From: Ancylonema sp.
Taxonomy: Eukaryota
Direction: 5' to 3'
DNA length: 64,000 bases
Assembly (NCBI GenBank): GCA_050230475.1
Contig: JBFLGF010000090.1
Span: 1-64,000 of the forward strand
Below are positions 6,501-64,000 of the stretch, piece by piece. The notes beneath the pieces are model-generated. The model was given only the letters and a program-made list of their open reading frames with translations. It made no database searches and was not told where the DNA came from. The position numbers and the translations under genes are program-made. How positions within the stretch are numbered: the first letter of the stretch is position 1; each line of letters starts with the position of its first letter.

Positions 6501-6674
6501 CAGTAAAACCTGTCTAAATGAATACTGTTGGGACCGGGAACAAATATTCCTTTATACAAGTTATTCTTTTAGACAGAGCCGGTTCCTAACAAAATCCCGT
6601 TTTGGGACCGGGATTTTCTATTCTTTCAGAGAGGTTATTCCTTTCCACAGTATTCCTTGAGACGGGTTATAGTG
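6501..6674. mobile_element. MITE, Tc1/mariner (pogo-like) type, copy 1
   Basis: Imperfect TIRs cagtaaaacctgtctaaatgaata / tattccttgagacgggttatagtg followed by TA. Homologous to 11288-11434. Confidence 0.65.
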
Positions 6675-6681
6675 TAGTACA

Positions 6682-9078
6682 ATGATGTGCGAAGCGGATG
6701 ATCTTCACAAAGTGACGCATCATGATAGAGGGAACAAGAGATGGACAGGTGGCAAGTGCACACAGGTCCCCATCTGGATTGCCATCGAATACTCAGCATT
6801 CAGCCGTCGTTTTCGCTTCAGGACCATTTTGGCGTGTCCTTCACGTAAACGTAACCGAAATCGTATTCCGTACATGATGACCGGACCCATAATTGTGAAC
6901 GTAACCGCACCCGAAAGTCAAATAACCGTAACGGGAACCGTAACCGTAACTGTGACCGGGGAGGGGGGAATGCAGGCCGCCGCCCAGATGCTCGAGACCG
7001 CATCCAAGGCCGCTGTGCTTCGCCACGTGGAGGCGTCGATGGGAAGGGCCATGGACGAAATCGCGGCCCGAGAATTCCGCGACAAGATCGAGAAGCTTGA
7101 GTGCGCGGTGGCGGAGTCCCAGTGGCAGGTGGCAGAGGCGCAGGCGAAGGCTGGGGAGGAGAAGAAGAAGAGGGTGGAGGTGGAGGGGAGAATCAGTATC
7201 GAGCAACGGAGGAGGGCGGAGGTGGAGGGGCGGTTGGGGGACGAGGTGAGGAGGAGACAGCTGGCGGAGAACGGGAGGAGGGCTGCGGAGAGTCAGATTC
7301 GGGATGCTATGGCTATGGCGAGTGAGGGGGAGGAGATGAGGAGGGAGATGGAGGGGGAGTGGTTGAAGGAGAAGGGGGCGAGGGAGGGGTTGGAGGGAAG
7401 GGTGGGGGGGGCGGAGAGGGAGGTGGAGGAGGAGAGGAGAAAGAGGGGGGAGGCGGAGAAGAGGGCGGGGGAGGAGGGGGAGAGGAGGAAGAAGGTGGAG
7501 GAGATGTTGAAGGAGGAGCAGAGGTTGAGGGGGAGCGAGGAGCCGAAAGCGAGAGCGGAGGAGAAGCTAAGGAAGGAGATCCAGGGGAGACTAGTGGATG
7601 AAGAGAGGAGGAGACAGGCTCTGGAGGGGAAGGTGAAGGAAGCGGAGACTGCAAAGGTGAAGGCGGAGGCTTTTGCGAGGGAAGAGGTGCGGATAAGGAA
7701 GGAGGAGGAGAAGAGGAGGGGGGAGTTGGAGGGGAGGATAGTGGAAGAGATTAGGAGGCGAGCGAAGGCGGAAATTAAGGCCATGTCTGAAGAGGGGAGG
7801 AGGACGGAGGTGGAGGATAGGTTGAAGGAGGAGGTAAAGAGGAGGGAGGAGGCGGAAGGGAAGGTTGGGGAGATGGAGGGGAGGGTGAGGAAGGCGGAGG
7901 AGTGGGGGAGGTCTGAAAGGGCGAGGAGGAAAGAGTTGGAGAAGACTGCGGTTGGGGCGGAGAGGGCGAGGGTGGGGGCGGAGGAGGAGGTGAAAGTATG
8001 GAGGGAGAAGGTGGAGAGGGAGGAGGCGGGGATGGGGCTGGGGGTTGGGAAAGGGGAGGGGGGAGAGTGCGGGGAAAGTGGGGATGCGGAAGTGGAAGAA
8101 TTGAAAATGGAGGTCGAGAAAGTGAGGAAAGAGTTGGCGGAGGCGTTGGGGGGTGGAGAAGGGAGGTGGGTGGGGGAGAGGGAGGCGGGGGAGAGGGTGG
8201 GGTGGGTTGGGGAGGAGGCCTTGCGGGAACTAGAGGCGAAGTTGAGGGGGGAGGAGGAGGAGAAGAAGGAGATCATTCTGAAGTTGGAGATGGTGGAGGG
8301 GAGGCTGCAAGAGGTGGAGGGGGGGAAGGGGGAGAGGGAAAAGGGGTTGGAGGAGGAGGTGTGTTTGATGGAGATGAGGTTGGGGGAGGAGAAGGAGAAG
8401 GTGAGGAGGTTGGATGAGGAGGTGGCGGAGATGAAGGCCAAGGGGGATGGGAAACGAGAGGTAGATGGGGAGGAGGGGACGGTTGGGGTTCGCTATAACG
8501 AGTCTGAGGTTGGTGCGGAGGTGTTGGGGGGTGAAGAGGGCGAAGGGGGGGTTGGGGTGGAGAGTGGTGACGTGGCAAATCGAGAGAGGTTGGAGTCCGA
8601 GGTGGGGAGGTTGAGGGAGCAAGTCGAGAACCTAAAGGGAGTAAATGCGTTGCTTGCCAATCAGGGGGGGGGGGAGGGGAAGGAAGTAGAACGGTCAAGT
8701 GTGGGGGGGGAGGAGGGGGAGGGTGAGAATGATGTGGAAGTGCGGAGTTTGAAGATGCGGATTGGGGAGTTTGAGAAGGCGCTTGTGGAGTGTAAGTTGG
8801 CCCTCGAAAAGGAGCAAGCGACTCGAAAGGAGATGGAGCACAAAGTGAGAGACGCTTTGAGGCGGAAAGAGGAGGCAGAGCTGAAGGCACTGGCGATGAC
8901 AGAGGCGATGACGACGCGGTTGGGAGGGCAGGGTGGGGTGGGGAAGGCGGGTGGGGCGAGGGAGGGGGATGCGGAGGTAGGGATTGGAGGGAAAGAGAAG
9001 TTGAAGGTTGTGAGCATGATGGATAAGTGGAGGGCTAGGACGAAGGTGCAAGATCTGGGGGGTCTTGGTGGAGTGTGA
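6682..9078 (+). CDS. Long Glu/Arg/Lys-rich coiled-coil ORF, possibly the terminal exon of the ankyrin gene; the true start is probably near 6874-6976
   Basis: 798-codon open frame with heptad-like EE.RRR.E.E repeats and extreme purine skew. No family recognised. Confidence 0.6.
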   Translation: MMCEADDLHKVTHHDRGNKRWTGGKCTQVPIWIAIEYSAFSRRFRFRTILACPSRKRNRNRIPYMMTGPIIVNVTAPESQITVTGTVTVTVTGEGGMQAAAQMLETASKAAVLRHVEASMGRAMDEIAAREFRDKIEKLECAVAESQWQVAEAQAKAGEEKKKRVEVEGRISIEQRRRAEVEGRLGDEVRRRQLAENGRRAAESQIRDAMAMASEGEEMRREMEGEWLKEKGAREGLEGRVGGAEREVEEERRKRGEAEKRAGEEGERRKKVEEMLKEEQRLRGSEEPKARAEEKLRKEIQGRLVDEERRRQALEGKVKEAETAKVKAEAFAREEVRIRKEEEKRRGELEGRIVEEIRRRAKAEIKAMSEEGRRTEVEDRLKEEVKRREEAEGKVGEMEGRVRKAEEWGRSERARRKELEKTAVGAERARVGAEEEVKVWREKVEREEAGMGLGVGKGEGGECGESGDAEVEELKMEVEKVRKELAEALGGGEGRWVGEREAGERVGWVGEEALRELEAKLRGEEEEKKEIILKLEMVEGRLQEVEGGKGEREKGLEEEVCLMEMRLGEEKEKVRRLDEEVAEMKAKGDGKREVDGEEGTVGVRYNESEVGAEVLGGEEGEGGVGVESGDVANRERLESEVGRLREQVENLKGVNALLANQGGGEGKEVERSSVGGEEGEGENDVEVRSLKMRIGEFEKALVECKLALEKEQATRKEMEHKVRDALRRKEEAELKALAMTEAMTTRLGGQGGVGKAGGAREGDAEVGIGGKEKLKVVSMMDKWRARTKVQDLGGLGGV

Positions 9079-10418: not shown

Positions 10419-13400
10419 TCAAAGCCTGGAGTTGAGCACGGCTTTGATTCGATCCGCCTCCGTTTGCACGTGCGAGCGTTTGATGTCGGCCACTTTGGTG
10501 CACCCCAGCAGCGCCATCCCCAGCTCCAACTCGTCCCTCAACATGCTCAACACTTTGCTCACACCTGCCTCGCCCGCCGAGGCCAACCCCCACACCACTG
10601 GGCGACCGATCTGGAAAAGGGGGGGGGGGAGGGGGAGGGTTATTCATCATTGTAGCCGAGGAAGGGGCGTTATTTGCAGTTTCCTTTGAGTTTCTCTGTG
10701 GGGGGGTTGGTGTCTCTTTTTTTTAAAAGTTGATGTTATTGTGGAGGTTGTGTAGTTAGTTGGTGAGGGGGAGGGGGGAATACTCGCGACGTGCAATCGA
10801 AACAAGTACACAGGATCACTGGACAGCAAATAGCAGTATAAAACAACCACATTCCTTCCACCTCAGACTCCCCCTCCCTCCCTTCCCCCTTCCCCCCCTG
10901 CCCACTCACAAAGATCCCGGTGGCTCCTAACGCCAACGCCTTGATGACATCTGTCCCTCTCCGAACCCCCCCATCCAGGAATACTGGGATCTTCTTGTCC
11001 ACAGCCAAAACCACCTGGGGGGAGAAGGGGGGGCGGGGGGGGAGAGAAGTTGAGGGTGCATACGGCAAATCACGATCTCGGAGAGACCCGTAGATATGCC
11101 TTTTCAAATAACTCCTCGGAGTTCCTACCTACTGCTGTACATAGTCTCTGCATACACCATAGCATCGTTACTACCCAGATCAGGCAGGGCAGCCTACAAG
11201 GATTCGAAACGTGTGTGGTTTGTTTAAAATGCTTTTGGGTTTCCCCTCCCTTGTAGTGTTCGGTACAGACCCCATACTAAAATACTCTACTGTAACCTGT
11301 CTAAAGGAATAGGGTCCGGGCCGGGAAAAGTTATTCCTTTAGACAGGTTACTCACTTATAAAGTCTAATGTATGGGTCCTAACAAATCCGGCTTCGGGAC
11401 CGGAATTTCGTATTCCTTTAGACAGGTTCCAGTGTACAGTCTCCGTACAGTACCTACACACTATAGACACACTCCAATTCCAAGGAGTGAGGGGCTGAGT
11501 TTGGGCCTCCACAGGTGTCTCCACTCCACTCCACCCTTTGACCCCATTGCATATCCATGTGGGGTGCACTGTTCCCCTCCCCCCTCACCTCCTCCAGTGC
11601 GGAGATGGTTGCTGACACATAGTCCAGCTGGCGTGCTCCGTGATTGGACACGATGATGCCGGCGGCGCCCACGTCAACGGCGATGCGAGCTGAAAGGGAG
11701 GAGGGAGGGGGGAGGGAGGAGGGAGTTAGTCTGGGGGGGGGGATCGCGGGGTTGGGCAGGGTGGGGGGGGGATGTGGGTAGGGGGCAGGGGGTTCGGAGG
11801 AGGGGTACAATCGAGTGCCTTTTCTCTCTTGGGTTTATATATTTCGTCCCCCTCCACCCCCCACCCCCCCCCTTATAACCCAGTGCCCCCCAGGCACATG
11901 TAGTGCTTGCACTCTGAGTCCATCCTTCCCCCCCCTTCCTCACCATCTTCTGCTGTGATGACCCCCTTGACAAAGATGGGCATGGAGGTGATGGTCTTCA
12001 GCCACGTTACATCCTGAAAAAGGAAGGGAACCACGGAAGGAAGGAATCACGAAAAAGGGGTAGACAGGAAAAATGAAGCGCGGTGAAGGGGTAGCCAATG
12101 ATTCTAGGGACCCTGCAGATACCCATGATTTCACGGGGGGACAGGTGCATATGACACCTGCCATAAACATGACTACATTCATGACACGTATATACACATA
12201 TGAGTGGCTGGATGGATCAAAGCAGCAAAATCAAACCCAAACAAACTCTCCACTGCAGTGGACCCCTCCCGACCCACGCCCCCTGTCCACTCAAACAAGA
12301 AGGGGACTTGTTTGCACAAAGAAAGCATGGTCAAGAAGGCTTTCGACAGACACAACTTCATCCCCCTCCCACCTTCCAGCTGAGTGACCTGTCAATCTGT
12401 CCCGCCACGTACGAAGCGAGACCAGAGTCGTCGGACTGCGCACCAAAGAGCCGCAGTGGACAGAGGATCAGGAGGGGAGGTAGGGAGGGGGACACAGCGG
12501 GAGGGGTGGTTCAGAAAAAAAAAGTTTCAACGCAAAGTACCAACCAGGAAAGTACTTCATTCCAAAGGACAACAGTGAACCAACGATACAGATCAGTACG
12601 AATTCAACCGCTAATGTTAACATAACAAAATAGGCAGGCAGGGCTTCAATACCCTTCACACCCTACTCTCCCAATCGCAACTCCCCCCGCCCCCGCCCCC
12701 CCCCCCCCTCACTTTCTCCATGTTCCCCAGGTCCAACCCCTCGAAGTTCTTCAGCGTCAAGTTGGGGGGCAACACGAATCTAGGCCCACAAAGGAAACCC
12801 AAAAACCCTAAACCTTCAGCACACCGCTCCCTCATCCGCCTTTCAAGACCCTTTTAACCTCAGAACCCCTAGCCGGCACTGCAGTCCAAAAGCCCCAGCC
12901 CCCCCCCACCTGTTCCGTATATCCGCCTCCCTTCTCCCCAACCGCGGTGTATCCACGGTGAGTGCGATTGCTTTGAACCCAGCCTTCTCCGCACGACGCA
13001 CAAGCTGCTCGACCACCTTACGGTTCTTGTAAACCTGGAGAGGAAACCAACCAACAAATCAACAAATCAACCGACCAACGTAGGAAAAGTTCTGAGGGTG
13101 AGGGGAAGAGGGATGCAAGAACGAGGGGAAGATTTAGGGAGGGGGTGGGGGGAGAAGTGCAGCAGTTTCAAACTCTTGCCATCCTTTGACATACGATTGT
13201 TTGACTTTTTGGGGTTTTCCTTTTTTTTTCTTCTTTGTTTTCCCCACATCTATTTCCAAACGCGTATGTTCTACGGCAATATCCGAGCCAGTGAGCTACT
13301 ACCCCCCCAACCGCCACAACAGGACACCAGCCCTCCCCTTCCAACACACGACCACCTCCTGCCACGTGTCCTTCCGCCCAGGCGTGTGTTACTGACATAT

Positions 13401-43120: not shown

Positions 43121-48122
<5,002 letters not shown>

Positions 48123-48660: not shown

Positions 48661-48944
48661 TGACTCTTGGTAGTCAAGCATTTTTCGTACCTACATCGAT
48701 CGTGTACGGCTACACGTGCAAGCACTACATCGTATAAGCACACCGTACACATCGTGATTGTAACAAAGTCCACCCCACCGTACAAGCTATCACATAGCAA
48801 GGCCATCTCCCTAGGCACACACCGTACTCGCATAACCGCGCCTAGACGGCATGCAGTCACCGAGCACCGCTCCCCATCACCGCGCCTAGACGGCATGCGG
48901 TGCCGCAACTCGCGCGATCACACCGCGCTTCAAATTAATGGTCA
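48661..48944 (-). repeat. Candidate 3' LTR of the gypsy element
   Basis: Termini TGAC...GTCA. On the minus strand it is directly preceded by a polypurine tract (GGGGGGGGGAG, 48945-48955). The partner LTR is not in the window. Confidence 0.65.
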
Positions 48945-49690
48945 CTCCCCCCCCCAAGACAGGGAAAAGCTCCCGCGACCCCGGCTTGGTCAATCACCGG
49001 GAATTTTTTTGAATGATCTGCACTTCCCATCATTGCCGAACACCGTTTGCACAATGGTTAGAACACCTACTCCTCCAAGATATTGGTGGGTTCGGGGTAG
49101 CTAGCCCCTCACCCCACTCTTATCTAGAGGAGTTGGTCAAATCACCCACACCGAAATAATTTCCCGCAAGTTTAGTGTGCTACCACCAAAGGATCCACCT
49201 TTGGTCTCTAGGCCTCAAACTTGATTGAGCCTCCGCGCCACATGCGCCAACCTCCTCTCACTTCTCACAATGTTTTTATTGACTTAGTGAATTGAGGTTA
49301 TGTGAGTGTCACACACTTCTCATAGAAGTTGACCAATCACACTTCCTGCATAAAGTTGATTTTGCCACTTAGGAGGTCTTCAATGCCTCCGGCAAAGGCA
49401 TCAGCCAATCCATTGCATTTGCCCCTCATGGAGGTCTTCATGCCCCTCATGGAGGTCTCATGCCCCTCATGGAGGTCTTAGATACCTCCGGCAAAGGCAG
49501 CAGCCAATCCAGTGCATATATGTGATATGGAACTCCATTATCACCATATCCCTCTCATGCAATGTATCCGATGTTACATTGCATGGTTCCGATGTGGGGT
49601 ACAATGCTCTTTCATGCAATGGTTCCACTGTTACGTTGCATGGTTCCGATGTAGAGTCTTTTGTGCTTCACTCTGAAGTAAGTAGCTCAC

Positions 49691-49831
49691 CTAGTGTCGA
49701 GGACAAGTCCAGTTTCCCTCCGGCACTCCTACCAGGGGTGGTGTTAATAAACACCAAGTGTGATACCCCTGGTTACACTTGTCGCACAGCACCATCCGTT
49801 TCGGGTAGGACTGCAACCCACAAACCCGGCA
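49691..49831 (-). pseudogene. PHD finger at the C-terminus of gypsy pol
   Basis: Manual translation CRVCGLQSYPKRMVLCDKCNQGYHTWCLLTPPLVGVPEGNWTCPRH*, one frameshift away from the integrase tail. It is not shown in the ORF track. Confidence 0.9.
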
Positions 49832-49955
49832 TGTGCTGTCTCCCCGCGATCATACAACTCTGGGTAGACCCTCTTGTCTCCCACCGGTATAGTGCAGTGA
49901 GCAATGTGCTTCACTTGCTCTTGCATTGTCGTCCCATCTCTACCCCCAAGAACTG

Positions 49956-51640
49956 CTATCCCTCAGTCCCTGAGCTCCACATCCTCAAGATGTGTGGCCT
50001 TGTGATGACCTCCAGGGAGCTAGCCGTTGGCCGCTTCAGCAGCACGAAGTCTCCAACCTTGAACTTCGCCTTTGGCCTATCCCACCCTCCTCCACGGACT
50101 AGCTTGTACCTCTCCACCTCCCTTTGCTGGGCAATCGCCAGGTTCCTGAATGCCAGTGGCAGAACTTCCTGAAAGATCTGGCCCCTCCTATCTAGGAACA
50201 CTTTCATGGCCTCCACCCCTTGAGTCTCATCAAAGACTCTCTCCTCCTCGTCCTAGATCCGAGCTTGAAAGATCGGAAAAGCATGAAGTATGGCGAGTAG
50301 CCTAGTGACTTCTGCTTGGACAGCCTGTAGCCCATAGCTACGTAAGGCTGCAGTTCATCCCACTGCTCCCCACCTCCCTCAAGCAAGCACTTCCTGAGTG
50401 CTTTCTTCATTGTTTTCACCATCCTCTCCGCCAACCCGTCTGACTGCGGGTGATCCCTGGCTGCAGTCCTGTGAGTGATCTCATGGCGGGCCACGAGTGT
50501 CTCAAACTCTCCTCGAAACTCACCACCCTGATCCGCAATCACCTCCCCTGGTGCGCCATACCTAGACAAGATCTGGGACTTGAACTGGTATGCCACCTCT
50601 TCGGCCCTCTTGGAGGTTGTTGGGATGAGCTCCACCCACTTGGTGAAATGCTCTATGCACACCAGCACATATTTGTTCCCCCTCTCCGTCTCCTCCATTG
50701 GCCCCGCAAAGTCTACCCCCCACCTGTACATAGGTCCTTTGATGGGAAGCGGCTGAAGGTTCTTCCCAGACTCTCTGAAAGCACCCTTGCCCCGAGCGCA
50801 ACTCATACACTCTTTCACCACTTTCGCCACCATCTCCACCATGCCTCTCCACCAATAGGTCTTTCCCAACAAGTCTGCTACCCTCATGACCCCAAAGTGC
50901 CCCATCTCCTCGTGCACTTTCTTCACCAGCCCCCCCCGCTCCCGCGGTCTTGGGATCACTAGCATCCTCCCTTTCTCTCCCACCTTGTACAGGTTGGTTC
51001 CCAGCCACCTGTACTTGGTCCCCCTCCGGTACACCCGATCTCTCTCCAGAGCATCCCACTCCTCACTGTGCTTGCCAGCCTGCAGGTACTCAAGCAAGTA
51101 CTTGTCAGCCCACACCTCCCCCGAGGCTGCGTCAGTGGTCTCATCCACTTTCTTATGTTCCCCCACTCCTAGTGCCAAAAGAGTCATGGCTAAAAGAGTC
51201 TCGGGTCGGAAAGTGATATCACCCCGGTCCCAGTCAGGAACCTCAAGTCCTCCTATGGAATCCATGGGAAACCTGGAAAGGCAATGTGCGTTGCCGTTCT
51301 CTGCGCCTGCCCTGTGCTCCACCTTGAAGTCGAACTCTTGCAGCAACAAAGCCCACCTCGCCAGCTTCCCCGACAGCTTCTTTGTCGACAGGATCCACTT
51401 GATTGGCTCATGGTCGGTCACCAGTGTGAACTGGTTTCCGATCACGTACTGCCTGAAATGTGAAGTCGCCCACACCGCAGCCAAACACTCCCCCTCAAAA
51501 CTAGAATAGTTATTCTCAACTGGGTTGCAACTCCTGCTGGCATAAGCCACAACATAGTCCAGCCCCCGCTCGTCCTTCTGCCCAAGGACTGCCCCCATCC
51601 CCTTCTGACTCTAGTCAGTAGCAAGGTAGAAGGGCTTGCT
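49956..51640 (-). pseudogene. pol: Gypsy RNase H and integrase
   Basis: RNase H motifs LATD*SQKGMGAVL, EGECLA and VTDH. HHCC finger HEEMGH...CMSC. DDE motifs GVDFAG, ADQGGEF and DGLAERM. Tail KFKVGDFVLL. Confidence 0.93.
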
Positions 51641-52660
51641 CCCATCTGGTCGCCTCAGCACCCCAGCCGAACACAGCGCCTCCTTCAGCTTTAGGAAGGC
51701 CTCCTTCTGTTCCCCCCCTCACTCCCAGACCTATCCTTTCCGCAACAGCTTGTTGAGCGGAAAGGCAATGGTGTTGAAGTGCGGTACAAACTTGCGATAG
51801 TAGCTGAATAACCCCGAAGCCCCCCTTAGCGATGACAAGTTTGTAGGTGCTGGTAGATCCTTGACTGCCTTCACCTTCTCCTCCTGCGGCTGCAACTCTG
51901 CTGCAGTGATCTTGTGCCCCAGGAAGTCGATGCTCTCCACAGCAAATAGACACGTCCCTGGGTGCACATTCAACCCCGCTGCTCTGAGTCGTCTGAAGAC
52001 CTCCTGCAGATGCTCCAGATGCTCCTCCAGCGTGCTTCTCCACACGATGATGTCATCGATGTAACACCTCGCAAATGTCAGCCCCCCCAGAATGTGGTCC
52101 GTCTGACGCTGAAAGTAAGGTGGCGCGTTCTTCAGTCCGAACGGCACTACGCACCACTCCCACAGCATCCGCCTGGCTCCCCAGAATGTTGTCTTGGCAC
52201 GGTCCCTCCTACAGTAGTGGCATCTGATGGTACCCCGACCTCAGATCCAGCTTGCTGAAGATCTTTGCCTCCTTCATGACATCGAAGATGTCCTCTATCA
52301 ATGGCAGCGAGTACTTGTCGACGGCGTCAGTGCATTGATCGGCCTGTAGTCCCCGCACTTTCTGAAGTCAGTGTAGTTCCCCTCATCGTCCTTCTTCTTC
52401 ACCACCACAGTAGCCGAAGCATACTTGGTCTGGACTGATTTCCTTGATGAACTTCAGCTTCTCCAGCTTCTCGCACTGCTTCTCCACAAACTCCCACTCC
52501 TTTTCCCCGAGTTTCTGCGGCGGCCTGTAAACCCTCCCCTCCGACACCCCCCCGATGCTCATTGGCTCTCCCTTGAACTGCTCCAGATCCTCCATGCTGT
52601 AAGCAAAGCGACAATTGTTCTCCCTCAGCAGCTCCAACACCAGCAGCTGGTCCCTTTCCT
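51640..52660 (-). pseudogene. pol: Gypsy reverse transcriptase (frameshifted)
   Basis: Motifs [48 protein letters not shown] and SYYRKFV. Confidence 0.93.
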
Positions 52661-53839
52661 TTACCCCCCCCCCACCCTTGATTTTCTTAAAATTCTCAAA
52701 AAAAACAGGTTTTCGGTTTAAGATCCCACCCTTAGTGCTCACTCCTACCCCTGAGTGCTGGCTACCGTTCCCCCCAAACTCCCCCTGCACATCATTTTTT
52801 TTTTTGTTTTTTTATGATTTTCTGAAGTTTTCAGTGGGGCCCCAACCTCCCCACCCCCAACCTCCCCCAACCGCTTCCTCTCCCCCAGAGCAGCCATCTG
52901 CAGCTCTGTAGGCCTCAGTTCTGCTCCAAATCCAGAGTGCAATAGTGCTATGGATATCTCTTTCCCCCATCTATGGTTTTTTAAATCCATGACATCCCCC
53001 CCTAAAACCCCTGTCTGAAAATCCAAATCTTGGATTTCAGATCTGGCCAACTCCAATTTACACTCAGAGTAGTAAAAAGGGCTGGAAATCTTTGATATTG
53101 AGTTTCTGAGTACACGAAATGGCTTGTTGAAATTTCCTACTCTATCCTCACTACCAGCTCGAAAACCTGCTTCTGGTTCCAAAACCCTAGGGTTTAACAG
53201 CACTTTTTCTGAATTCTGGACAGAATTCTGGCCTTTTTGACTGCCTGAGATACCTAGCTCTCCTTGGCTGCTAACTTGTCCAAATTCTGATCTGATTAGT
53301 GATCCTGGCTCCTTAGATACTTCACTACCAGATCTCAAAGTTACAGATTTTTCTGGATGGAGGTGCAAAAACGCCCCATCAGCATCTCCCTCAGCTATTT
53401 TTTTGTCGGGAAGGCCAGCTGGCAATGATAAATGTTGCCCTGAGCTTCTCCCTTCGAATATGGCTGCACCCAGCTTGTTTCCTGGTTCTTCTTAATGCCC
53501 TCTAGCTGATCCCAAATTTTCAGCTTAGCATCGAAGTCTAGCAGCGCGCGCACCACTTTTTGTGCCTCTGCCATCTCCCCTCCCCCTATGAGCCCAGCAT
53601 ACATTCCGTATGCTGGAGGGCTGTCCTTTTCGATTTCACTCCTCTGGTTTTCACCATTGTGTTCCTGATCTCCCCAGCTCCATTCTCGTGAGCCATTGCC
53701 AGTTGCCCCCAACCGTGCCCCAACCGCACCCTCCCCGCAGTCCCCCTTGAACTGCGGCTGGCCCCCCCCAACCCCTGATCTTTTAGGGGTTGGGTGGCAG
53801 CGCCTCCCTAGCTGATCATGCTGGCTTCCCACAGAGCCC

Positions 53840-54790
53840 CCAGCCACCTCATGGTGTTGCCCTCCATGCATTTCCCCAGCCTCTCCGCTCGCTGCTTCGC
53901 GGAAACCACCTCCGCCCGAGTGGTCCCCTCAGGGAACCCCAACAGCTGCTCTTTCTCACCCACATCTGGCTCCTCCCGCCTGTGGGTGTTGGTGTTGTAC
54001 ACCTGCCCCTCCCCTGGGCTCCCATCCTCCTGGGTTCTGAAGGCATAGCTCCCCTGAAAGCTGACGATTGTCGGCATCAGGATCCTCTCCTCTCCTCGGA
54101 AATTCCTCACGACCTGAGGTGGGAAGTCGGTGAAAGCAGGTGCCTTGGGGATGTGATACTCCCTCAAGATCTCCCTCAGTGGTGGGCTTGGCTGCAGATC
54201 CTGCGGAATGGCCTCTTGCAGCTCATCCCGGTCCATAGCGTTCGTCCAACAGTAGCGCAGCCGATGGCTGGCTGCCCCCAACCCCCCTGCGTCCAGAACC
54301 ACCCCCAACCCAATAAAAGACTCTATCAGGCATCTTTGCCAACTCCCCGGGAGAGGTATTTTCCAGAAAGTAGACTGGCGATCTCTCCTGGTGGTGCTGC
54401 AGCCACCCAAGGATGCGCATCAAGTCGTAGAAATACTGAAACCGCTTGTCTGCGTACCCCTCCTGCTTGCCTCCCCTGCTGATACTCTGGCACTCCGAGC
54501 CAGCCCCCACTATGTCGACCTCCCCGTTTTGCGCAATGAGATTCACCAGCGCCATTTCTCCGATCAGCCCCACATCCTGTGGCAGCCTCTTCTCCCAGCC
54601 AATGAATGCCCCCCTGTTGATCTGGCCTGGGTACTCAAGGATCAGCTTCTCGATCACCCCCTCGTTGATCCGGTTGGAGATGAGGTCTCTCTCGGCGCAC
54701 GACACCAGCCGCACCCTCAACCCTGCCGCCAAGGCTGTTCTAGTGGGCCCCAGACCGATGCCACTGAAAAGTTCGACAATATGCACTCCC
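53840..54790 (-). pseudogene. C5 cytosine DNA methyltransferase domain within gypsy pol (one frameshift near 54320-54340)
   Basis: Motifs in canonical order: I VELFSGIG, II SCAE, III PQDV, IV GAGSECQS, VI YFLENT, VIII SHRLRYCWTN, IX EKEQLLGFP, X RAERLGKCM. Confidence 0.88.
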
Positions 54791-55801
54791 TCTTCTGGTG
54801 CCTCCTCCCTCAGGCTCACGACCCGTGTGTTGATCGGAGCTGCTCCCCTCACTGGTGGTCCCACCCACTTCCAGGATCTCTCGACTCTGACCTTTCCCAG
54901 CAACCTCTCCCTTGCCTTCAGCAGCCTCAAAGCTGCAGCCGCTCGCCGTGCTGCATCCGCCTGCTGCACTGCTACCACGCGAAGATCTGCCTCACTAGGC
55001 TCACCAGTCAGCTCCCCCAACCGCGGTTGGGACTAACTTTGCTGTGCGCTCTTCACAGCCACCCCCCCCACCATCACCCTAGGGTCAGGTTGCACCACAC
55101 TCGTGTGCTTCCCCCATCCCTGAATATGTCCCTCCTCCCCCTTTCCCAGCATCTGCTGCGGTTGGGGGCCCCAGCCGCGGTTGGCCCTCCTCCAGCTGCG
55201 GTTGGGTGGTTGCCCCCCCCTCCCTTGGGCTATCTCCCAACTCTATGACCGCCATGCCCTGAAATTTCTCCCAGGCTTCCCCATTACCCCCCCCATACCC
55301 CTCCTCAGCCACCCCGTACTTTTTCCACCCATCTCCTCCTCCAGCAAGAGGTTGGCCTCATCGAGCGCCACCCTTCGAGCTATTTCCACATCCATATCCC
55401 ACCCCCGTGCCGCATGCTCCTTCATCTGCTCCAATAAAGTGAGCAGTGCCAGATTCTGCACCTCCCCTTCCCACTCTAACTCCACAACCCCCTCACTCTC
55501 ACCCCCCCCATATCCCCCTCCTCAATCTCCTGCCACTCATATGAAGTGTCACCGTCCGCATCCTCGAATTGACCCTCCTCAGCCTCTAAGCTGTAGAGAT
55601 CAGACTGCATATGAACCTCTCTTGACCACTCCCTGTGGATCCTACCCAACGCCATGGCCTACATAGGCAGTGTTGAGCGCAGTGCCCTGCACTCCTCCTC
55701 TGTCATCCTCCCCTGAGCCGGTACAACCCCTCTGATCTTTCCCCCCCCCTCAGCCGCTGAGCGATGGTAGTCTACTCTCCATTTGAAAACCTCTACCCAA
55801 C

Positions 55802-56248
55802 CTATACCCCCCCAATAGGCCCAATAACCTCCATCCCCAGTAACACGTCGTAACACTCAGTGTCCACTACGAAAGCTACCTCATTGTACGTGGTCTCGTA
55901 CCGTGTTCCAGCAGCCAGGGTGAATCTCATCTTCTCCCTTGTCATGCGCTGACCCGTCGCCATCTTCCTTGTTGCCGAAACGAATGACACCCCCACTGTC
56001 AACTGCCCCTCTGTGAGCCCCATACGTCTAGCCATCCGAGGGCTAATCATTGGTTTAGTAGCCCCCGAATCCAGAATCACCATGCCCAATGGGGATATGC
56101 CATTCACCACCAACTCCGTGTTTTTCACTGGAAGTGTAGCCACACTCCAGGGTCCCTTCTGCCCTCCCCCTTCTACCCATCCCGCGTGTAGTGGATCCCC
56201 CTCCACTAATGACCTCAACCCCCCGTACTGATCCATATTTTTCTGCAA
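55802..56248 (-). pseudogene. Gypsy aspartic protease
   Basis: VILDSGAT...ISPRMARRMGL and YDVLLGME. Confidence 0.88.
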
Positions 56249-57477
56249 GACCTATGCTTGTAGCTTGTGGTTTCTTTCTAGGGTTTTAAACTTCTCTGTC
56301 AGCATGTTTGCTAGCACCTCCCCTTGTGTTCCCAATCCCCTCCCCATGATCTGAATCATCTTTGCCTGGTCTATTACCGCCCCTGAGTCACCTAGCTTCT
56401 TGAGATCCCCTACCACCTCCAACCTCCCCGTCATAATTGGCATCGTCTCTGCAAGTTTCCCTCCTGGCCTCCTGGAGCCGCTGCCTCTAGTTCCACCAGC
56501 CTCTCCCTCTCCTTGGCATTATAAACCACCTCCTGTACCCCCTCCTCCGCCACCTCTATTGAAACCGGTTCTCGGCCGTATCTGCCGTACTCAACTCGCC
56601 AGTCATAAGACCCGAATTGTAGATCGGTTGCCTCTTGCAATGCTCTACCCGCTGCAGTGTCCATTCCTGGAGGGTATCCCATAGGAGGGTATCCCTCACA
56701 GTACTACCCTCCCCGACAAACACCGCTAGAGCACCCGTCGCCATTGCTGACGGAGGCGTTGTCACCCCTGTGACGCTCATCCCTGGTCGGATCTGAACTG
56801 ACGGCCCTCTATCTACCCTCTCTGAAGGGTAGATAATGTCGCGTGGCTGAGTGTTGTGTGCGAAAATAACTATCCTCGGTCTCCCTCGTCCCCTCCTCTC
56901 TGCCGCCGTCGCTTCTGCTGCACGGACCCCAGTTGCGTGCACTGCCCTCTCTGCTGCCTCTTCCTGCTCCAGACGTTGCCCTACGTTCTCGATCACACGC
57001 CTCAAATCAGGTGCCCCCGGTGATCTCGGTCGTGTCCCCCCTTTAGCTGCCCCCGCACTCTGGGGTCCCAGCTTGCCTTCCAGGCTGCTACCCTCTCCCC
57101 TCTCCCTCCCCTCTAGCCTCTCGGAAGTCAGAACTCCCTCCTCCAGCCCGCCCTCCCCTAGCGCGTGGCGCCATCATCTTGAATGGTGGCCTGACGTGCA
57201 CCACTGGCACGTCCATGACAACCCACATCTTCCCCACGTAGAATCCCAGTTCCACTCCGTTTACATCACCCTCCTCAGCCACCCCCATTGCCAGCATCTG
57301 GCGTGGGTAACCAGGGCTGAAGAACTCTTCATCTCCTCGGCCCAGCCTCTCCTCAAACTCTGGAGTTCTCCTTCCTGGTGGCCCTGGTACCGCCATGGCC
57401 AACCCCTGACGTGGCCGCTTGGCATCAGGTGCCCCCCCGGGGTTGTAGTTCTTGGGGCGAAGCTCCGGGTGCTTTGC

Positions 57478-58811
57478 CTAACACTGCTCCTCGGTGTGGT
57501 TCTGTTTGTCACAAAACCTGCAAGGTGCCCCCTCCGTCATGTGCACCCGTGGCATGGACATGGCCACCCCTCTCGCCGTCCCAAATCTGGCGGCGAAGGG
57601 TGCTTTCATACCCTTCCCGCGTCTTGCTGTTGCGGTCTTGAGTGCCTCCCTCAGCCTCCCCGCCGTCTCCTCCCTCGTCCCCGTGGGACAGTTGGCAGCG
57701 CGGTGCCCCAGTCTGTCACAAGTGAAACACTTGACAAGGCTTTTCCCCCCCATCCCTCCTCCTCCAGTCCCACCCCCTCCACTCCCAACCCCCCCTCCTC
57801 CTCCATTCCCATCCCCCCCCCCTCCTCCTCCCTCTCTCGGCTTCCCTTTCCCCTCCTCCCGTCCCCCTCCCTCCTTTTCCCCCTCTTTTTGACGCGGCAA
57901 CAGGCCAAACATCCGCAACTCCGCATCCCGCGACATCTGCGCTCTCTCCTGGGAGGTGGCAATATCTCTGACATCTGCCATACTTATCTTGGGAAGTCCT
58001 CCTCCATCCCGGCGCTGCTCCTCAGCCCGAAGCTTTGGGCCGACCACCCCCCGCAACCCTCCCAGCAAACAATCCTCATAAAAGCACGCTGCCTGACGCG
58101 CGCTGACCATATGTGGAACGAGGTTAACAGTTATCCGGAACAAGTCCTCGTAGATGGAGTTTGAGGTAGCTCCTGCTGGTGGTCTGAAGTTCTGGAACTC
58201 CCCTAACCATTCTGACCCCGCGGTTGCAAATCGCGTCCTCAATCGCTGGAAGAATCCCTTGAGATCAGAGCTTCCAGAGGTACTGCTGGAGGCCCCTGAA
58301 GCCCTGAGGTGAGTCGCATCAGGTGCCAACTCGCCTTCTGCCCATAGTATACGCGCCAGACCACTCTCACTATTTCCACCACTTGCGCTATTGCCAACGC
58401 TGGGTTATCACGGTCATGCGGGTCAATGGACCAGCGGTAATAATCTAGAACCAATCTTGCCTGCCCCTCTACGTGGCCTGACATCCGCTTGAGGACCTCA
58501 AACTGACCATATTCCCCACTAAGGAATTTTTGGAGATTACGCTTCTCTGCCTCCCACATATATTTCATATTTTGGATAAATTGGCGCTGCGCCACCCCTC
58601 CTCCTCCTGAATACTTGGGCACAACCAAAGTACTCTCCATCTCTGCCTCCTCCTCTCAACCCGCGAAATACACCAACGAATAAGCCGCAAACATAGGTAC
58701 CGGAGGTACAAAAGCCGGTGGTTGATATATGACAAGCTGAAAATTCTCCACTTCGGCCTCTCCCTCTGAGTTTGCCGAACCCTGAGAATCAACTGATCCT
58801 GCTTTTAGCAA
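57478..58811 (-). pseudogene. gag: Gypsy gag with two CCHC zinc knuckles
   Basis: VPKYSGGGG capsid-like start, CFTCDRLGHRAANC and CRFCDKQNHTEEQC. Frameshifted. Confidence 0.8.
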
Positions 58812-59249
58812 TGTTACGTGATAGGTGTGCACGATCGTGTTAATCTTTCCGTACAAGGAACTTCGTCTCTCAAAGATGATCAATGACAAGTATAGTGTTG
58901 GAAGAATTATTATTGAATGGTCGGCATCGTGTAGGTATACCACGATGCCTCATCCAAAACAAGAATCTACAAAGCGTGCCGACGGTCGTATCGACGGACC
59001 GTCGGCCTATCAAAACACAACAACAGTCAGATCCTGACACCGGCACATGCCGGACAGTCTGACAAGACATAGTCTAGATTCGGAACCATCTAGACCGCAC
59101 GTGCTACAAACCGGCACAACGAAACGTCATATTCGGGTGCCCGGACATAAGTCCGGCCCCTCAATATAAGCACACCCTAGGAACCGGTGTTACACTAACA
59201 GTCTGGACTAGCACACTTGCAAACATGGCTATCCGATATTATTCCTACA
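58812..59249 (-). repeat. Candidate 3' LTR of the copia element (left edge 58812 or 58896)
   Basis: On the minus strand a PPT-like GAGGGGGTG directly precedes TGTAGGAAT at 59249. Candidate opposite termini are TGTTACG at 58812 and TGTTGGAAG at 58896. Confidence 0.6.
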
Positions 59250-62200
59250 CACCCCCTCGGATGCCATGCCAAGTTTGGCATTGAGTCAGCACCAAGGGAC
59301 TACCCTATCTACAGCTAAGTCATGGCGAAACCATGACATACGTAATATGAATGGCAACACATATGCCAGAATTCATGAACAACTGACCACTCTAGATGCA
59401 AGCAGATCTGCAACTTTTCAGGTGTCCTTAAGTGTTTTCAGGGCAGAAAAAAGAGTGGGGTGACTTAGCTGGATAGGCGAGCGTAGAGAGCCCTCCACAG
59501 GTGCATTTTGCAAGAAGAATAACAGAACATACACCCCCTGCCAAACATAGCATGGCAGCCGAAAATCTCCTAGAACTTAATGTGCACCCCCATTTCAGTG
59601 AACCCTCCCAAAACCTATAGACTTTCCGTGTCTGTCAAGTAAGACTTGTGGAAGAGCCTTAGTGAACTATCGGCTGGTTGATTGGCCCCTGCCAGAGATA
59701 CACATACTTCAGCCTGCCAGTTTTGTGACACTCTCTCACCACCCAGTGGTACACCACAACAACATTGAAATGCTTGGCCTTCTGGCGCTGGACTGGGTTC
59801 TAGATCATTGAGAGTGCGGCTGTTGAGTCACTGTAAACTGTAATTTAATTAGGGAGTTTGAGCTCATGCAGGAGCGACTTCAGGTAACAGTATTCCTTAG
59901 ACACACTACAGGCAGCAATATATTCAGCCTCTGCTGTACTCTGTGCGCGACTGTAGACTCTGTGTTTCTGTGACTTCCAGCTCAATGCAGTTCCCCCAAC
60001 AGTAGTGACCCACCCTGTGACCGACTTCCCACAGTCATACTGCAGCTATTCCAACTAGCATCACACCAACTAGCATCACAACCTCTTCCGCGCCTCACGT
60101 AGCATATTCCGTGATCCACTCTTCCTTTTAAATATCTAAACAGTTGGTGTAAGGCTTTGATGTGAGCAGTCCCAGGATTCCCCATGTGTTTTGCCAGTAC
60201 CCCCAGTGCATGCGCAATATCCGGTCTAGTGTTTTTCATTGCATAAATGAGTGACCCAATTTTTCCCCGGAATTCAGTTATCTGTACAGGTGTAGGGGGA
60301 GTTAGAGGTTCATCTTCTTGGTGAAATGTCAGTCCAGGTGGTAAGGGTAGTTTTGTAGGGTTACAGTTTGCCATGCCAAAACGTTCCAAAACCTGCTTTA
60401 TGAACCCTCCCTGATGCAACGTGAGCACCCCTTGTTGTCTGTCCCTTTTCACTTCCACCCCCAGGATATGGGTTAGGGCCCCAAGATCCTTCATTTTGAA
60501 TTTCCGAGATAGTTCCTGTTTGAATGCTTTAATGACCATGGTGTTAGGACCAACTATCACCTGATCATCTACGTGTATCCCCACTATGATCCGTGACTGT
60601 CCTGTGCCCCTGGTGTATATGCATGTGTCCATAATGCACTGTTTGAACCCTATAGTGAGCATGAAGGTTGTGAACATCTCACCCCAGACCTTGCTACTCT
60701 GTTTCAGTCCGTACAGTGCCCCCCTCATTCTCAAAACTTTTCTCTCTGCCCCTCCCTCTATCTCCATAAATGGTGAAATTTTCATATATACTTCTTCGGC
60801 CAGTCTTCCATGCAAGAAAGCAGTCACCACGTCCATCTGTTCAATTTCCCAACCCTCTTGATTCGCAATAGATAGTAGAATGAGATATAGAGGTACTATC
60901 TACTACAGGTGCGAATATTTCATTATAATCAACTCCTTCTTGTTGTAGAAAACCCTGAGCGACCAGTCTGACTTTATATACTTTCAAGGGTTCCCGTGGG
61001 TGTGTATTTTGTTTTGAATACATATTTGCACCCCACAGCCCTTTTACGTGGTGGAAGTTCACACCCTCGAAAGTGTTGAATTCCCCCAAGCTTTTCAGCT
61101 CCTCCTGGATAGCAACTAACCACTGATACTAGTGTGGCCTCGTCATGGCCAGGTCAGCGTCAAAGGGTCGGAGGAGTCAGCAGACATGGACACCATGCAG
61201 AATCCAGGGTCAGAGGGGCCGTTGAAGCCTGTGAAGAAGCATGTTGCTTCCCAATCGTCGTCCTGAATGGCTGCTTCCAGCGCCTGGTCATCGAACTCCT
61301 CTCCATCATATCAAAAGACATCCCCAAAGTGGGCAAAGTTTGCCCTCCTCCTTCCCATTACTCTCTCAGCTATGCTCCCAGCATTCACCCCTTGCCCCCC
61401 CTCTTCATCCCCTCCTTGAACTTCCTCCTCCTCGCCTGCCACACCTACGTTGTTGACCCAGATTGGCTGTCAGACAGGCTCAATCACAGCGATGGGGACC
61501 TCAGCAGCTGGTGGTGGCGGAAACTGTAATGCTGGGATCTGGGCTCTTGGGTTGTTGTGGGCGGCTGCTGCTGCTAGCATTGCTGCTGACTGCTGCTGGT
61601 ACTGCTGCTGGCGTTGCTGCTCTCACTGCTGCTTGCCCTGTCACCCCTCCAGCCTTAGGCTCATCATCTGTGTCGGGGACCGGCTGGAGAAAGTGTTCAT
61701 CTGCTTTGGCCTCGACCTGGGGAGCTCTCCCCCCCATGAGTCTCGGGTACCCCGGTACTTCCTCAAAGACACGGACGTCTGTCCGCACCATCACACCGGC
61801 TCTGAGCGGGTCGAAGATGTTGTAACCAGCTTGATCTGCTGCCAGCCCAATGAAACCCCAAAAGCAGTCCTGGCAGCATACTTGTCCCCTTGTTTATTTT
61901 TATCATGCCCAACTTTCAAATACTGCACTAGGCAGCCAAATGTGTGACTTCTGTTCAGTTTGATTTGGCGTCCCGTCCACTTTTCAATAGGTATCCCCCT
62001 TGTCAATGAACTAGTGGGGTAGCTGTTCCTTAGCCAATTTGCATGCATTAGTGCCACATCCCAGTATGATTTAGGCAGTTTAGACCACATCAGCAAACAT
62101 CTCATCTTCTCCATCAGTGTTCGGTTCAGCCTTTCACACATACCGTTCTGCTGAGGACTATAGGGGGCAGTCAGTTCATGTTTGATGCCTTTATCCTCAC

Positions 62201-64000
62201 AATAGCCTTTCCACTCCTTGCTGGTATATTTCCCTCCTCCATCTGTCCTGATCGACTTTAAACGGCAGTCCTGACTCAACCTCTAGTTTCTGTCAGTGAT
62301 GCGCGTTTGACTGAGAGCATCGCTCTTGTGCTTGAGAATAGATACTGTTGACAGTCTAGAATTGACCTCTATCCCTGTCTGAGCATAATCAAACCCTCCG
62401 TGCATTGATCTGACACACACCAAAAGGATCAGATCTAGATGCAACCTCCCCATTTTTGGCATAGTGGTCACATCATCGCTAGCCATAGCATGCCCCCTCT
62501 GTCCCATTTTCCCCATACAGCAGATCACACAATCCTTGACCACAGTCAACTCTTCCTGACTCAGTCTCGGTATGTCCCCACGTCTGGCCATGTTTGACAT
62601 GGCTGGTATACCAGGGTGACCCAGCTTGCCATGCGAGAGCACTATGGACAGATTTGCTTGCAGACCAGATGAACCAGGCATGATGATAGATGCATGCAGC
62701 AATGACAGACCATTCCTCTGCCTGCTGACATCAGCCCATTTCTGTCCATTTTTAGTCAGTGGACGTGCAGAGCAGTGAGAGGGACGACGAAGAAGGAGTC
62801 GTCGTTCTTCACTCGAACGTGCACGAAGCCTGTCCCCTTGACCTTGTGGGGCGTGCCATCAGCCGTGTGGATGAATGAATGGTGCATCAAGACGTTGGTG
62901 TCGTACTCGACGAAGTGGTCTTTGTTTGTGAAGACGTGATCGGTCGAGCCTGAATCAAGCCACAGATGCGAGCAATCAGTTCCAACTGCCATAGCAATTC
63001 GTGCATCAAATGAGAATGCTGCATAAGCCAGGGATTCGGATGCATCAAAAGGTGTGTCTGAACGTGCAGCAAGTCGAGCCTCAGCTTGGTCACGAAGATT
63101 AGAATCAGGTGCAGCCAATGCCAGGTCAGATCTACGCTTCATGCATTCTACCAATGTGTGTCCAAGCTTATCACAGTATCTGCATTTTGGTTTCGGACTG
63201 CCACTTCCCTGGCCAGCCGATCTTCCCCCTCCCCCTTGCCGTTGGTGTCCACACTGCGACAGCTTGTGGCCGATCTGGTTGCAGCCATGGCACCTCATTT
63301 GCGGACGTGTAGGGCAGTCCGATTTTAAGGTGGCCATACTGGTTGCAGCCGTAGCACTGAAGTTCTCGTCAGGTCGCGACTTCCGGGACCGCCACTCCCA
63401 CCTGGTCGACACTTGGGCCAGCTCCGGAGCTGCCCAAGTAACCCCCTTTTCCCACGAAATTGGCCTGCTGCCCTCCCGGCAACGCCCCTCTCCTCTTCCG
63501 GTCGTTGCAGACCTCCCGTCGATCGCCAGCTGACAAAGTGCTGACGGCAACGGCCTGCGGGATCGTGAAGAGTGTTGGCGCACAAACTGCCCAAGACATC
63601 ACACTCTCCCGCGCGCTGTAGCGAGTGTTGAGGGAATTTCAGAAAGTTGATCGTCTGCTTCGCAAGCTTGACTGGCTCTCCCAGATGCCCTAGACGATAG
63701 TGCAGCTCCTGAAGCCGCTTAACGTAGTCGCTCAGGTCCTCCGCCTCTCCCATGATAATCGCCGTGAGCTCAGCCTCAGCGTTGGCGATCTCAATGGCTC
63801 CCTGAATGTCGTAGAAGGCTTTCAGGGCGTCCCACATATCCGCTGCAGTCTCGCAATTTCGTACGTGCGTTAGCTCCCCCGTCTGGAGGTGTTTGACGAT
63901 GTACGCCATTGCAGCGATATTCTTCTTCGACCAGACCTCTCGAAGGAGAGTCTGTCGACCGATGAGCTGGGTGCGTGCCGTGACCGTTCGAGCGACGTCC
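58812..64000 (-). mobile_element. Degenerate Ty1/copia LTR retrotransposon whose 5' end runs off the window
   Basis: Order: gag (TAADMWDALK, CCHC knuckles), protease (WLDSGSTDH), GAG-pre-integrase (HGKLGHPG...CVIC), integrase (IRTDGGG, YSPQQNGMCERLNRTL), RT (RLVAQGF, MDVVTAFLHG, ALYGLKQS, HVDD), then an RNase H remnant. Confidence 0.93.

Follow-up and report, generated by a model that had tools for sequence, protein, structure and literature searches.

A decayed Ty3/gypsy element with a DNMT3-like cytosine methyltransferase and a PHD finger in Ancylonema sp.

Organisation of the locus

The window, that is the whole 64-kb stretch of Ancylonema sp. DNA analysed here, carries a decayed copy of a repeated Ty3/gypsy family of the green-plant lineage. 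The element lies on the minus strand, from 58640 down to approximately 48690, and its Pfam matches (zinc knuckle, protease, RT, RNase H and integrase) follow the order gag-PR-RT-RH-IN, as in Ty3/gypsy, in agreement with a previous interpretation made from the letters alone (the sequence-only reading). A C5 cytosine methyltransferase (MTase) is found between the protease (upstream) and the RT/RNase H/integrase region (downstream). The element and its neighbour comprise the following parts.

58812..64000, minus strand: Ty1/copia element (RVT_2 E 1e-47, rve, Pol_BBD, Retrotran_gag_2)
58239..58640, minus strand: putative gag start with ATG at 58640; an ORF of repeat-level depth, ascribed to gag by its position
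57478..58404, minus strand: gag fragment with CCHC zinc knuckle at 57688-57729 (zf-CCHC E 1.1e-4)
55802..56251, minus strand: aspartic protease, LDSGA at 56060-56074 (Asp_protease_2 E 1e-7; gag-asp_proteas E 2e-7)
54328..55032, minus strand: N-terminal half of the DNMT3-like C5 MTase, motifs I-VI (PF00145 E 8.1e-5; pLDDT 89; best Foldseek match DNMT3)
53808..54329, minus strand: C-terminal half of the MTase, with motif VIII R-x-R, target-recognition region, motifs IX and X, and stop (profile matches: DNMT3A/B/C, then DRM)
52650..53807, minus strand: spacer of ~1.2 kb between MTase and RT (no tblastn match; repeat-level depth; putative role discussed below)
50204..52650, minus strand: RT, RNase H and integrase (H2C2 and core) (Pfam; tblastn; RVT_1 E 8e-17)
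49956..50252, minus strand: C-terminal part of the integrase, in a shifted frame (blastp and tblastn to relatives)
49691..49849, minus strand: frame-shifted PHD finger, the last part of pol (PF00628 E 2.9e-11)
48690..49556, minus strand: probable polypurine tract (49544-49556) and 3' LTR, with boundaries placed by a purine run followed by TG

A Pfam search of the ORF at 58239..58640 gave no match, and a repeat-pair search in the 64-kb window found no second LTR copy. The putative 3' LTR shows a depth above most internal bins, and the unique flanking contig stops at 48714. The main RT-RH-IN frame contains 7 stops in 719 codons and shares 40-42% identity over ~725 amino acids with unbroken relatives (tblastn), while further frame changes set the integrase end and the PHD finger apart from the pol frame; the reading frame of the gag-protease-MTase region is also broken. 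Owing to the 7 stops in the RT-IN frame and a frameshifting deletion in the MTase, this copy is dead. Near the 3' end, at 49363-49657, the element contains two internal duplications of 47-57 bases that are 84-89% alike; a check for DIRS-like repeats found short local duplications alone at this end, the 5' end lying outside the window. An Rfam scan of the window gave no match.

The copia element extends beyond the window edge on one side; on the other it stops ~170 bases before the gypsy gag start. Its probable 3' LTR (58812-59200) has TGTTA...TAACA ends, with a jump in depth at 58775, and its summed depth is very high (~0.8-1.3 million in run X1, see below); it may be nested in the gypsy 5' region, hiding the gypsy 5' LTR beyond the window. 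The host genes of the window are intron-rich, with exons at 198-28469 encoding an epimerase, an ankyrin repeat protein, an FMN-dependent oxidase, a glycerol-3-phosphate dehydrogenase and an NAD(P)-binding protein. A glycolate-oxidase exon gave almost equal scores with plant and animal enzymes; a streptophyte host would fit the intron-rich genes and the named relatives (see below). An 801-codon open frame at 6673-9078 on the plus strand, very G-/A-rich, Glu/Arg/Gly-rich and coiled-coil-like, had no Pfam match. A 70-base repeat at 6507-6650 and 11294-11428 (77% alike, 4.8 kb apart, with shorter internal copies) perhaps marks the ends of a small DNA element, and a pure (AT)n run of ~260 bases occupies 46553-46823 within a PP2C-like gene region.

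Motifs and reading frames of the methyltransferase

The C5-MTase motifs proposed in the sequence-only reading were all located on the minus strand between protease and RT, unpermuted and in the order I-IV-VI-VIII-IX-X, across two overlapping open frames (54223-55032 and 53808-54419). The positions given for them stood exactly or within a few bases, except that VELFSGIG ends at 54777 and not at 54787, and GAGSECQS was 1 base off. In the translation, the motifs fall as follows.

54754-54777, minus strand: VELFSGIG
54484-54507, minus strand: GAGSECQS
54355-54372, minus strand: YFLENT
54240-54269, minus strand: SHRLRYCWTN
53931-53951, minus strand: EQLLGFP
53865-53882, minus strand: RLGKCM

The window MTase retains the catalytic Cys, the Glu and the Arg-x-Arg. 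Pfam bears out the assignment for the N-terminal half (PF00145, E 8.1e-5, 22.6 bits against a cut-off of 22), and the C-terminal half alone gave no Pfam match. Five relatives (P0004, P0009, P0008, P0010 and P0019) read in a single frame across the frame-change site with additional residues, so the frame change is attributed to a short deletion and not to an intron; the view of this copy as frameshifted and intronless is thereby upheld. In its codon-position GC, the MTase resembles pol (GC3 0.74-0.75 versus 0.69), a pattern that, like the invariant catalytic residues of the family, lends purifying selection on the enzyme indirect support.

Relationship to DNMT3

On the basis of sequence profiles and predicted structures, the gypsy-borne enzyme best matches a DNMT3-like C5 cytosine MTase. 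A profile of the C-terminal half with 14 relatives, searched against the PDB, placed DNMT3A/B/C first (best E 0.004) and DRM next, and a 57-relative profile, built without the window sequence, ranked DNMT3A (E 9e-22) and DNMT3B (7e-19) above DRM (4e-14), M.HhaI (1e-7) and DNMT2 (1e-4). The N-terminal half alone scored best with the bacterial M.HhaI, and its predicted model (pLDDT 89) gave DNMT3 as the top match in a structure search (E 4e-5). P0023, an unbroken relative with 43% identity to the window over 310 columns, was modelled with a pLDDT of 95.7; Foldseek listed DNMT3C/B/A first (E 2e-15, TM 0.68) and VIA-align scored DNMT3 at Z 24.3 and 22.8, above the best bacterial enzyme (19.9) and DNMT1 (16.1), with an rmsd of 2.7 over 256 aligned residues for the best match. 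The C5-MTase fold anticipated from the motifs was thus recovered in both models, each with DNMT3 first. Taken together, these rankings by profile and fold place the enzyme nearer to DNMT3 than to enzymes of the DNMT1/CMT, DNMT2, DNMT5 or bacterial types, and its motifs are unpermuted, unlike those of DRM.

Conservation was counted over 73 relatives with a near-whole domain: 70 of 71 have the catalytic Cys, 72 of 72 the Glu of motif VI, and all 73 the two Arg of motif VIII. The family catalytic loop is W-E-C-Q or W-P-C-Q, unlike that of the aligned PDB enzymes. The replacement of PCQ by ECQ had been singled out in the sequence-only reading; ECQ is indeed present, but it is typical of the family, since E precedes the Cys in 43/71 relatives (P in 22/71), and the sole unusual residue is the Ser before it, an outlier against W in 58/71.

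Copies, relatives and layouts of the family

Depth was taken from two runs, X1 and X2, of one sample. The unique flanking contig, with 1 difference from the window in 1215 bases, has a depth of 68.6 (X1) and 4.5 (X2), and for the MTase the summed values are 30,070-50,949 (X1) and 1,795-2,406 (X2); the resulting ratio of roughly 400-700 suggests hundreds of related copies, summed depth not being itself a copy number. The MTase bins lie between those of the protease (~14,000) and the deeper ones of RT (56,000-91,000), so that related copies lacking the MTase may exist; among 15 listed of 190 read joints, none skips the MTase. Relatives at 84-94% identity were found, and a glacier-metagenome run contained short pieces of the family, the unique flank being absent from it.

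A HMMER search returned 707 clusters (50% identity) at E ≤0.001 and 391 at 1e-10, and the family survey drew on the best 150 of the 707. Gag, protease, RT, RNase H or integrase domains were detected in 27, and a PHD finger in 15, of 32 scanned relatives that were hand-picked and mostly long. Depth, clusters and gypsy domains all agree with the MTase being a trait of the family and not a one-off. A word-based search for longer relatives found none, and exact-pattern scans of metagenome contigs, viral contigs and prokaryote genomes, which are weak evidence of absence, found no relative.

The predicted domain order defines two layouts: A, as in the window, with the MTase before RT, and B, with the MTase between RNase H and integrase and the PHD finger usually downstream of the MTase. 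Layout B relatives P0046, P0056 and P0099 carry a G-patch domain directly after the MTase, and P0122 a Tudor-like domain after the PHD finger. The named proteins among 30 matches looked up (from the best 150 of the 707) comprise four from Closterium and one from Cymbomonas tetramitiformis, and none of the 30 bears a Klebsormidium label. The Closterium matches have layout A or are fragments grouping with A. The Cymbomonas protein P0112 (KAK3250090.1) has its MTase just before the integrase, groups with layout B and gave no RT match at E 1e-4; its DNMT3 affinity rests on the profile match and the tree, because a single-sequence PDB search returned only integrases.

In the MTase tree, layouts A (11 rows) and B (39 rows) fall on opposite sides of one branch (branch value 96, and 97 in a second tree), and the same split is seen in the RT/RNase H tree (7 and 23 rows, 99); the integrase tree has no resolved A/B split. 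These trees are quick or FastTree searches, midpoint-drawn and unrooted, and give no direction for the layout move; the window row is long in the MTase tree with the branch of 97. In a one-clade test that counted 24 unlabelled fragments as outsiders, layout A failed as a group (p-AU 1e-6); with these set aside, it forms one side of that branch. The pattern fits one DNMT3 capture followed by one move within the family.

Arrangement of the open reading frames

The last MTase helix is directly followed by the stop at 53808. Among the 31 nearest relatives (at least 42% identity), which are short proteins from short contigs without context, 18 end within 6 residues of the window stop, most at one position; one of these, P0097, fits by length alone, and other relatives run on for 13-76 residues. 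The same end position occurs in 11 of 126 distant relatives. Since the stop is common to 18/31 relatives and lies ~1.2 kb before RT, the MTase probably terminates an upstream first ORF instead of lying inside Pol, which speaks against the earlier proposal that it is released from inside a polyprotein. Gag, protease and MTase were found in one unbroken frame in the distant relatives P0105 and P0140 only.

The spacer between MTase and RT is ~400 codons long, with a GC of 49% and a CpG o/e of 0.32, and a tblastn comparison with the proteins of relatives gave no match; it may represent an intron or a leader preceding a second ORF. Within it, a short open stretch with an ATG (53395-53572, minus strand) could start a second ORF, and a Pfam and relative search of this stretch found no match. 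A promoter scan of the spacer with a bacterial model, here applied to eukaryotic DNA, stayed at chance level. Long unexplained spacers flank the MTase on both sides.

Alternatively, the protease may excise the MTase from within one Gag-Pol polyprotein, and decay may have produced the spacer as well as the stop at 53808. This is a possible but rather doubtful arrangement: in three distant proteins of layout A (P0051, P0140 and P0179) a single frame covers both MTase and RT, 107-149 amino acids apart, the Klebsormidium DNMT is described as sharing one ORF with RT (PMC5890265), and the window copy has many chance stops, but the clustering of ends in the nearest relatives at the window stop and a spacer of this length matching no relative speak against it.

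The PHD finger

The PHD finger after the integrase and the shared stop are additions to the sequence-only reading. The top PDB matches of the window finger are those of DPF2, ATXR5, KDM5B/KDM5A and UHRF1, and fingers of this type mostly read unmethylated H3K4. The Trp two places before the zinc-binding His, which in PHD fingers forms the H3K4me3 cage, is missing in 22 of 23 aligned family fingers by tally and in all by alignment. The family finger is thus likely, judging from its residues and PDB matches, to be a reader of unmethylated H3K4. Among layout A proteins that include the integrase end, it is present in P0079 and P0184 and not in P0179 and P0181. PHD fingers have been described in algal gypsy elements (PMC9940879, PMC6673714).

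Comparison with known elements

By its core features, and as compared with the description of the Klebsormidium element, the window element is of the published Gypsy-DNMT3 kind. The gypsy element of Klebsormidium nitens was described with an intronless DNMT3-related domain in its Pol ORF, a Ka/Ks <0.2 and DIRS-like repeats; its enzyme produced no methylation in yeast, a result that the authors call inconclusive (de Mendoza et al. 2018, PMC5890265). Later papers cite this finding as streptophyte Gypsy-DNMT3. The kinship with these DNMT-bearing retrotransposons suspected in the sequence-only reading is supported, as both are green-lineage Gypsy LTR elements with an intronless, unpermuted DNMT3-related domain and conserved catalytic residues. 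They differ in that the Klebsormidium DNMT lies in the Pol ORF with RT, whereas the window MTase probably ends an upstream ORF ~1.2 kb before RT; the Klebsormidium repeats are DIRS-like, whereas no split repeats were seen at the 3' end of the window element; and the available text on KnitGypsy-Dnmt3 makes no mention of the PHD finger that the window element has. Four unannotated Closterium proteins (CAI5973665.1, CAI7916612.1, CAI7911866.1 and GJP34393.1) resemble the window in having the MTase after gag/protease and before RT, with a W-E-C-Q loop in those read, and fall on the window's side of the MTase tree; they share 27-32% identity with it over the MTase, and two of them continue from the MTase into RT without a change of frame.

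Other elements share single features. SymbioDIRS-Dnmt3 from Symbiodinium also carries a DNMT3-type enzyme in a retrotransposon, and this enzyme methylates CG in yeast, but it is a DIRS element with a tyrosine recombinase in a dinoflagellate host and is described as a separate acquisition (PMC5890265). EpiLTRs of Cymbomonas and Euglena are likewise of the Ty3/gypsy type and combine a cytosine MTase with a chromatin reader, yet their DNMT is described as sister to DNMT4, with DAM and a chromodomain, and lies at the pol 3' end in Cymbomonas (bioRxiv 10.64898/2026.05.21.726589); a Pfam search of the ORFs of the window element found no DAM and no chromodomain, and its MTase matches DNMT3 best. The layout of P0112 is unlike that of the EpiLTR as described for Cymbomonas. 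Gypsy-7a_cRei of Chlamydomonas also has a PHD finger in its Gag-Pol polyprotein, with a proposed insertion bias, whereas a cytosine MTase is not among the domains listed for it (PMC9940879). Ogre elements, with separate Gag-protease and RT-RH-IN ORFs and a spacer spliced from part of the transcripts, provide a model for the window layout, although their spacer is described as ~274 bp on average, without an MTase, against ~1.2 kb here, where splicing is one possibility (PMC6317226). Methylase-encoding transposons were stated in 2019 to be absent from land plants such as tracheophytes (PMC6338049). The literature search, from which subscription journals and supplements may differ, found no gypsy DNMT3 with a PHD finger and none named outside Klebsormidium; the breadth of the family, its two layouts, the PHD finger and the probable ORF1-terminal MTase were not found in the literature searched. 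The family appears far larger and differently arranged than the one-alga elements described so far.

Proposed function of the methyltransferase

It is considered somewhat more probable than its opposite that, in active copies, the DNMT3-like MTase methylates the element's own cDNA, probably at CG, while the integrase PHD finger steers insertion via H3 tails. In this subfamily, the first ORF would encode Gag-protease-MTase, and RT-RH-IN-PHD would have an ORF of its own or depend on a spliced message, on the model of Ogre elements. An MTase ending the Gag-protease ORF would be about as abundant as Gag and would enter the particle in which reverse transcription takes place; packaged there with the RNA, it would methylate new cDNA before or at integration, and the PHD finger on the integrase would bias the insertion site by reading histone H3 tails. 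CG specificity is suggested by analogy with SymbioDIRS-Dnmt3 and DNMT3A as described in yeast (PMC5890265). By the same kind of analogy, a new copy may benefit from being already marked on arrival, so that it looks like host DNA or its own activity is restrained. CpG depletion was considered as a sign of self-methylation and rejected: the CpG o/e is 0.32-0.67 in the element and 0.80 in the first 44 kb, and the neighbouring copia without MTase (0.57) is equally depleted, so that the depletion of the element is not evidence of self-methylation.

An active enzyme could instead have as its main target the chromatin near the insertion, or other copies, and seed silencing that limits the spread of the family or conceals it in heterochromatin. 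The conserved catalytic residues and the chromatin-reading PHD finger that accompanies the family are compatible with this, and self-limitation was raised as a possibility by de Mendoza et al. (PMC5890265), but the PHD finger sits at the integrase end and not on the MTase, and this target is regarded as unlikely. Still less credence is given to the domain being a DNA/RNA-binding module or an RNA enzyme that performs no DNA methylation: such a role would accord with the reported lack of activity of the Klebsormidium enzyme in yeast (PMC5890265) and with the unusual catalytic loop, yet the catalytic residues are near-invariant in 73 relatives at ~30% identity, and the best matches are DNA enzymes, with DNMT2 far lower. 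A one-off insertion of a host or bacterial MTase into the window copy, to which the unexplained flanking spacers and the M.HhaI score of the N-terminal half might have pointed, is effectively refuted by an MTase depth of the same order as that of protease, gag and RT, the relatives at 84-94% identity, the same domain order in Closterium proteins, the pol-like codon pattern, and the 707 matching clusters, many of which are gypsy polyproteins.

Biological significance

DNA methylation normally silences transposons. Why some transposons carry an MTase of their own was left unanswered by de Mendoza et al. (2018); the single gypsy enzyme in that study is described as inactive in yeast (PMC5890265). 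The present analysis points to a family that is large, conserved in its catalytic residues and rich in unbroken members, with two layouts and a PHD finger, and so provides far more material for tests of activity and target. In a wider and more speculative reading, which we hold only tentatively and think probably overstated, the family would be a large and old green-lineage Gypsy-DNMT3 clade extending from chlorophytes to streptophytes in hundreds of lineages, in which DNMT3 was taken once, moved once and paired with a PHD reader; here, the enzyme would be fused behind Gag-protease at capsid-like levels, with hundreds of copies methylating their own cDNA and shaping the host methylome. If the family does span chlorophytes and streptophytes, the capture would be much older than the published single-lineage event and, if this is true, Gypsy-DNMT3 would be no Klebsormidium oddity.
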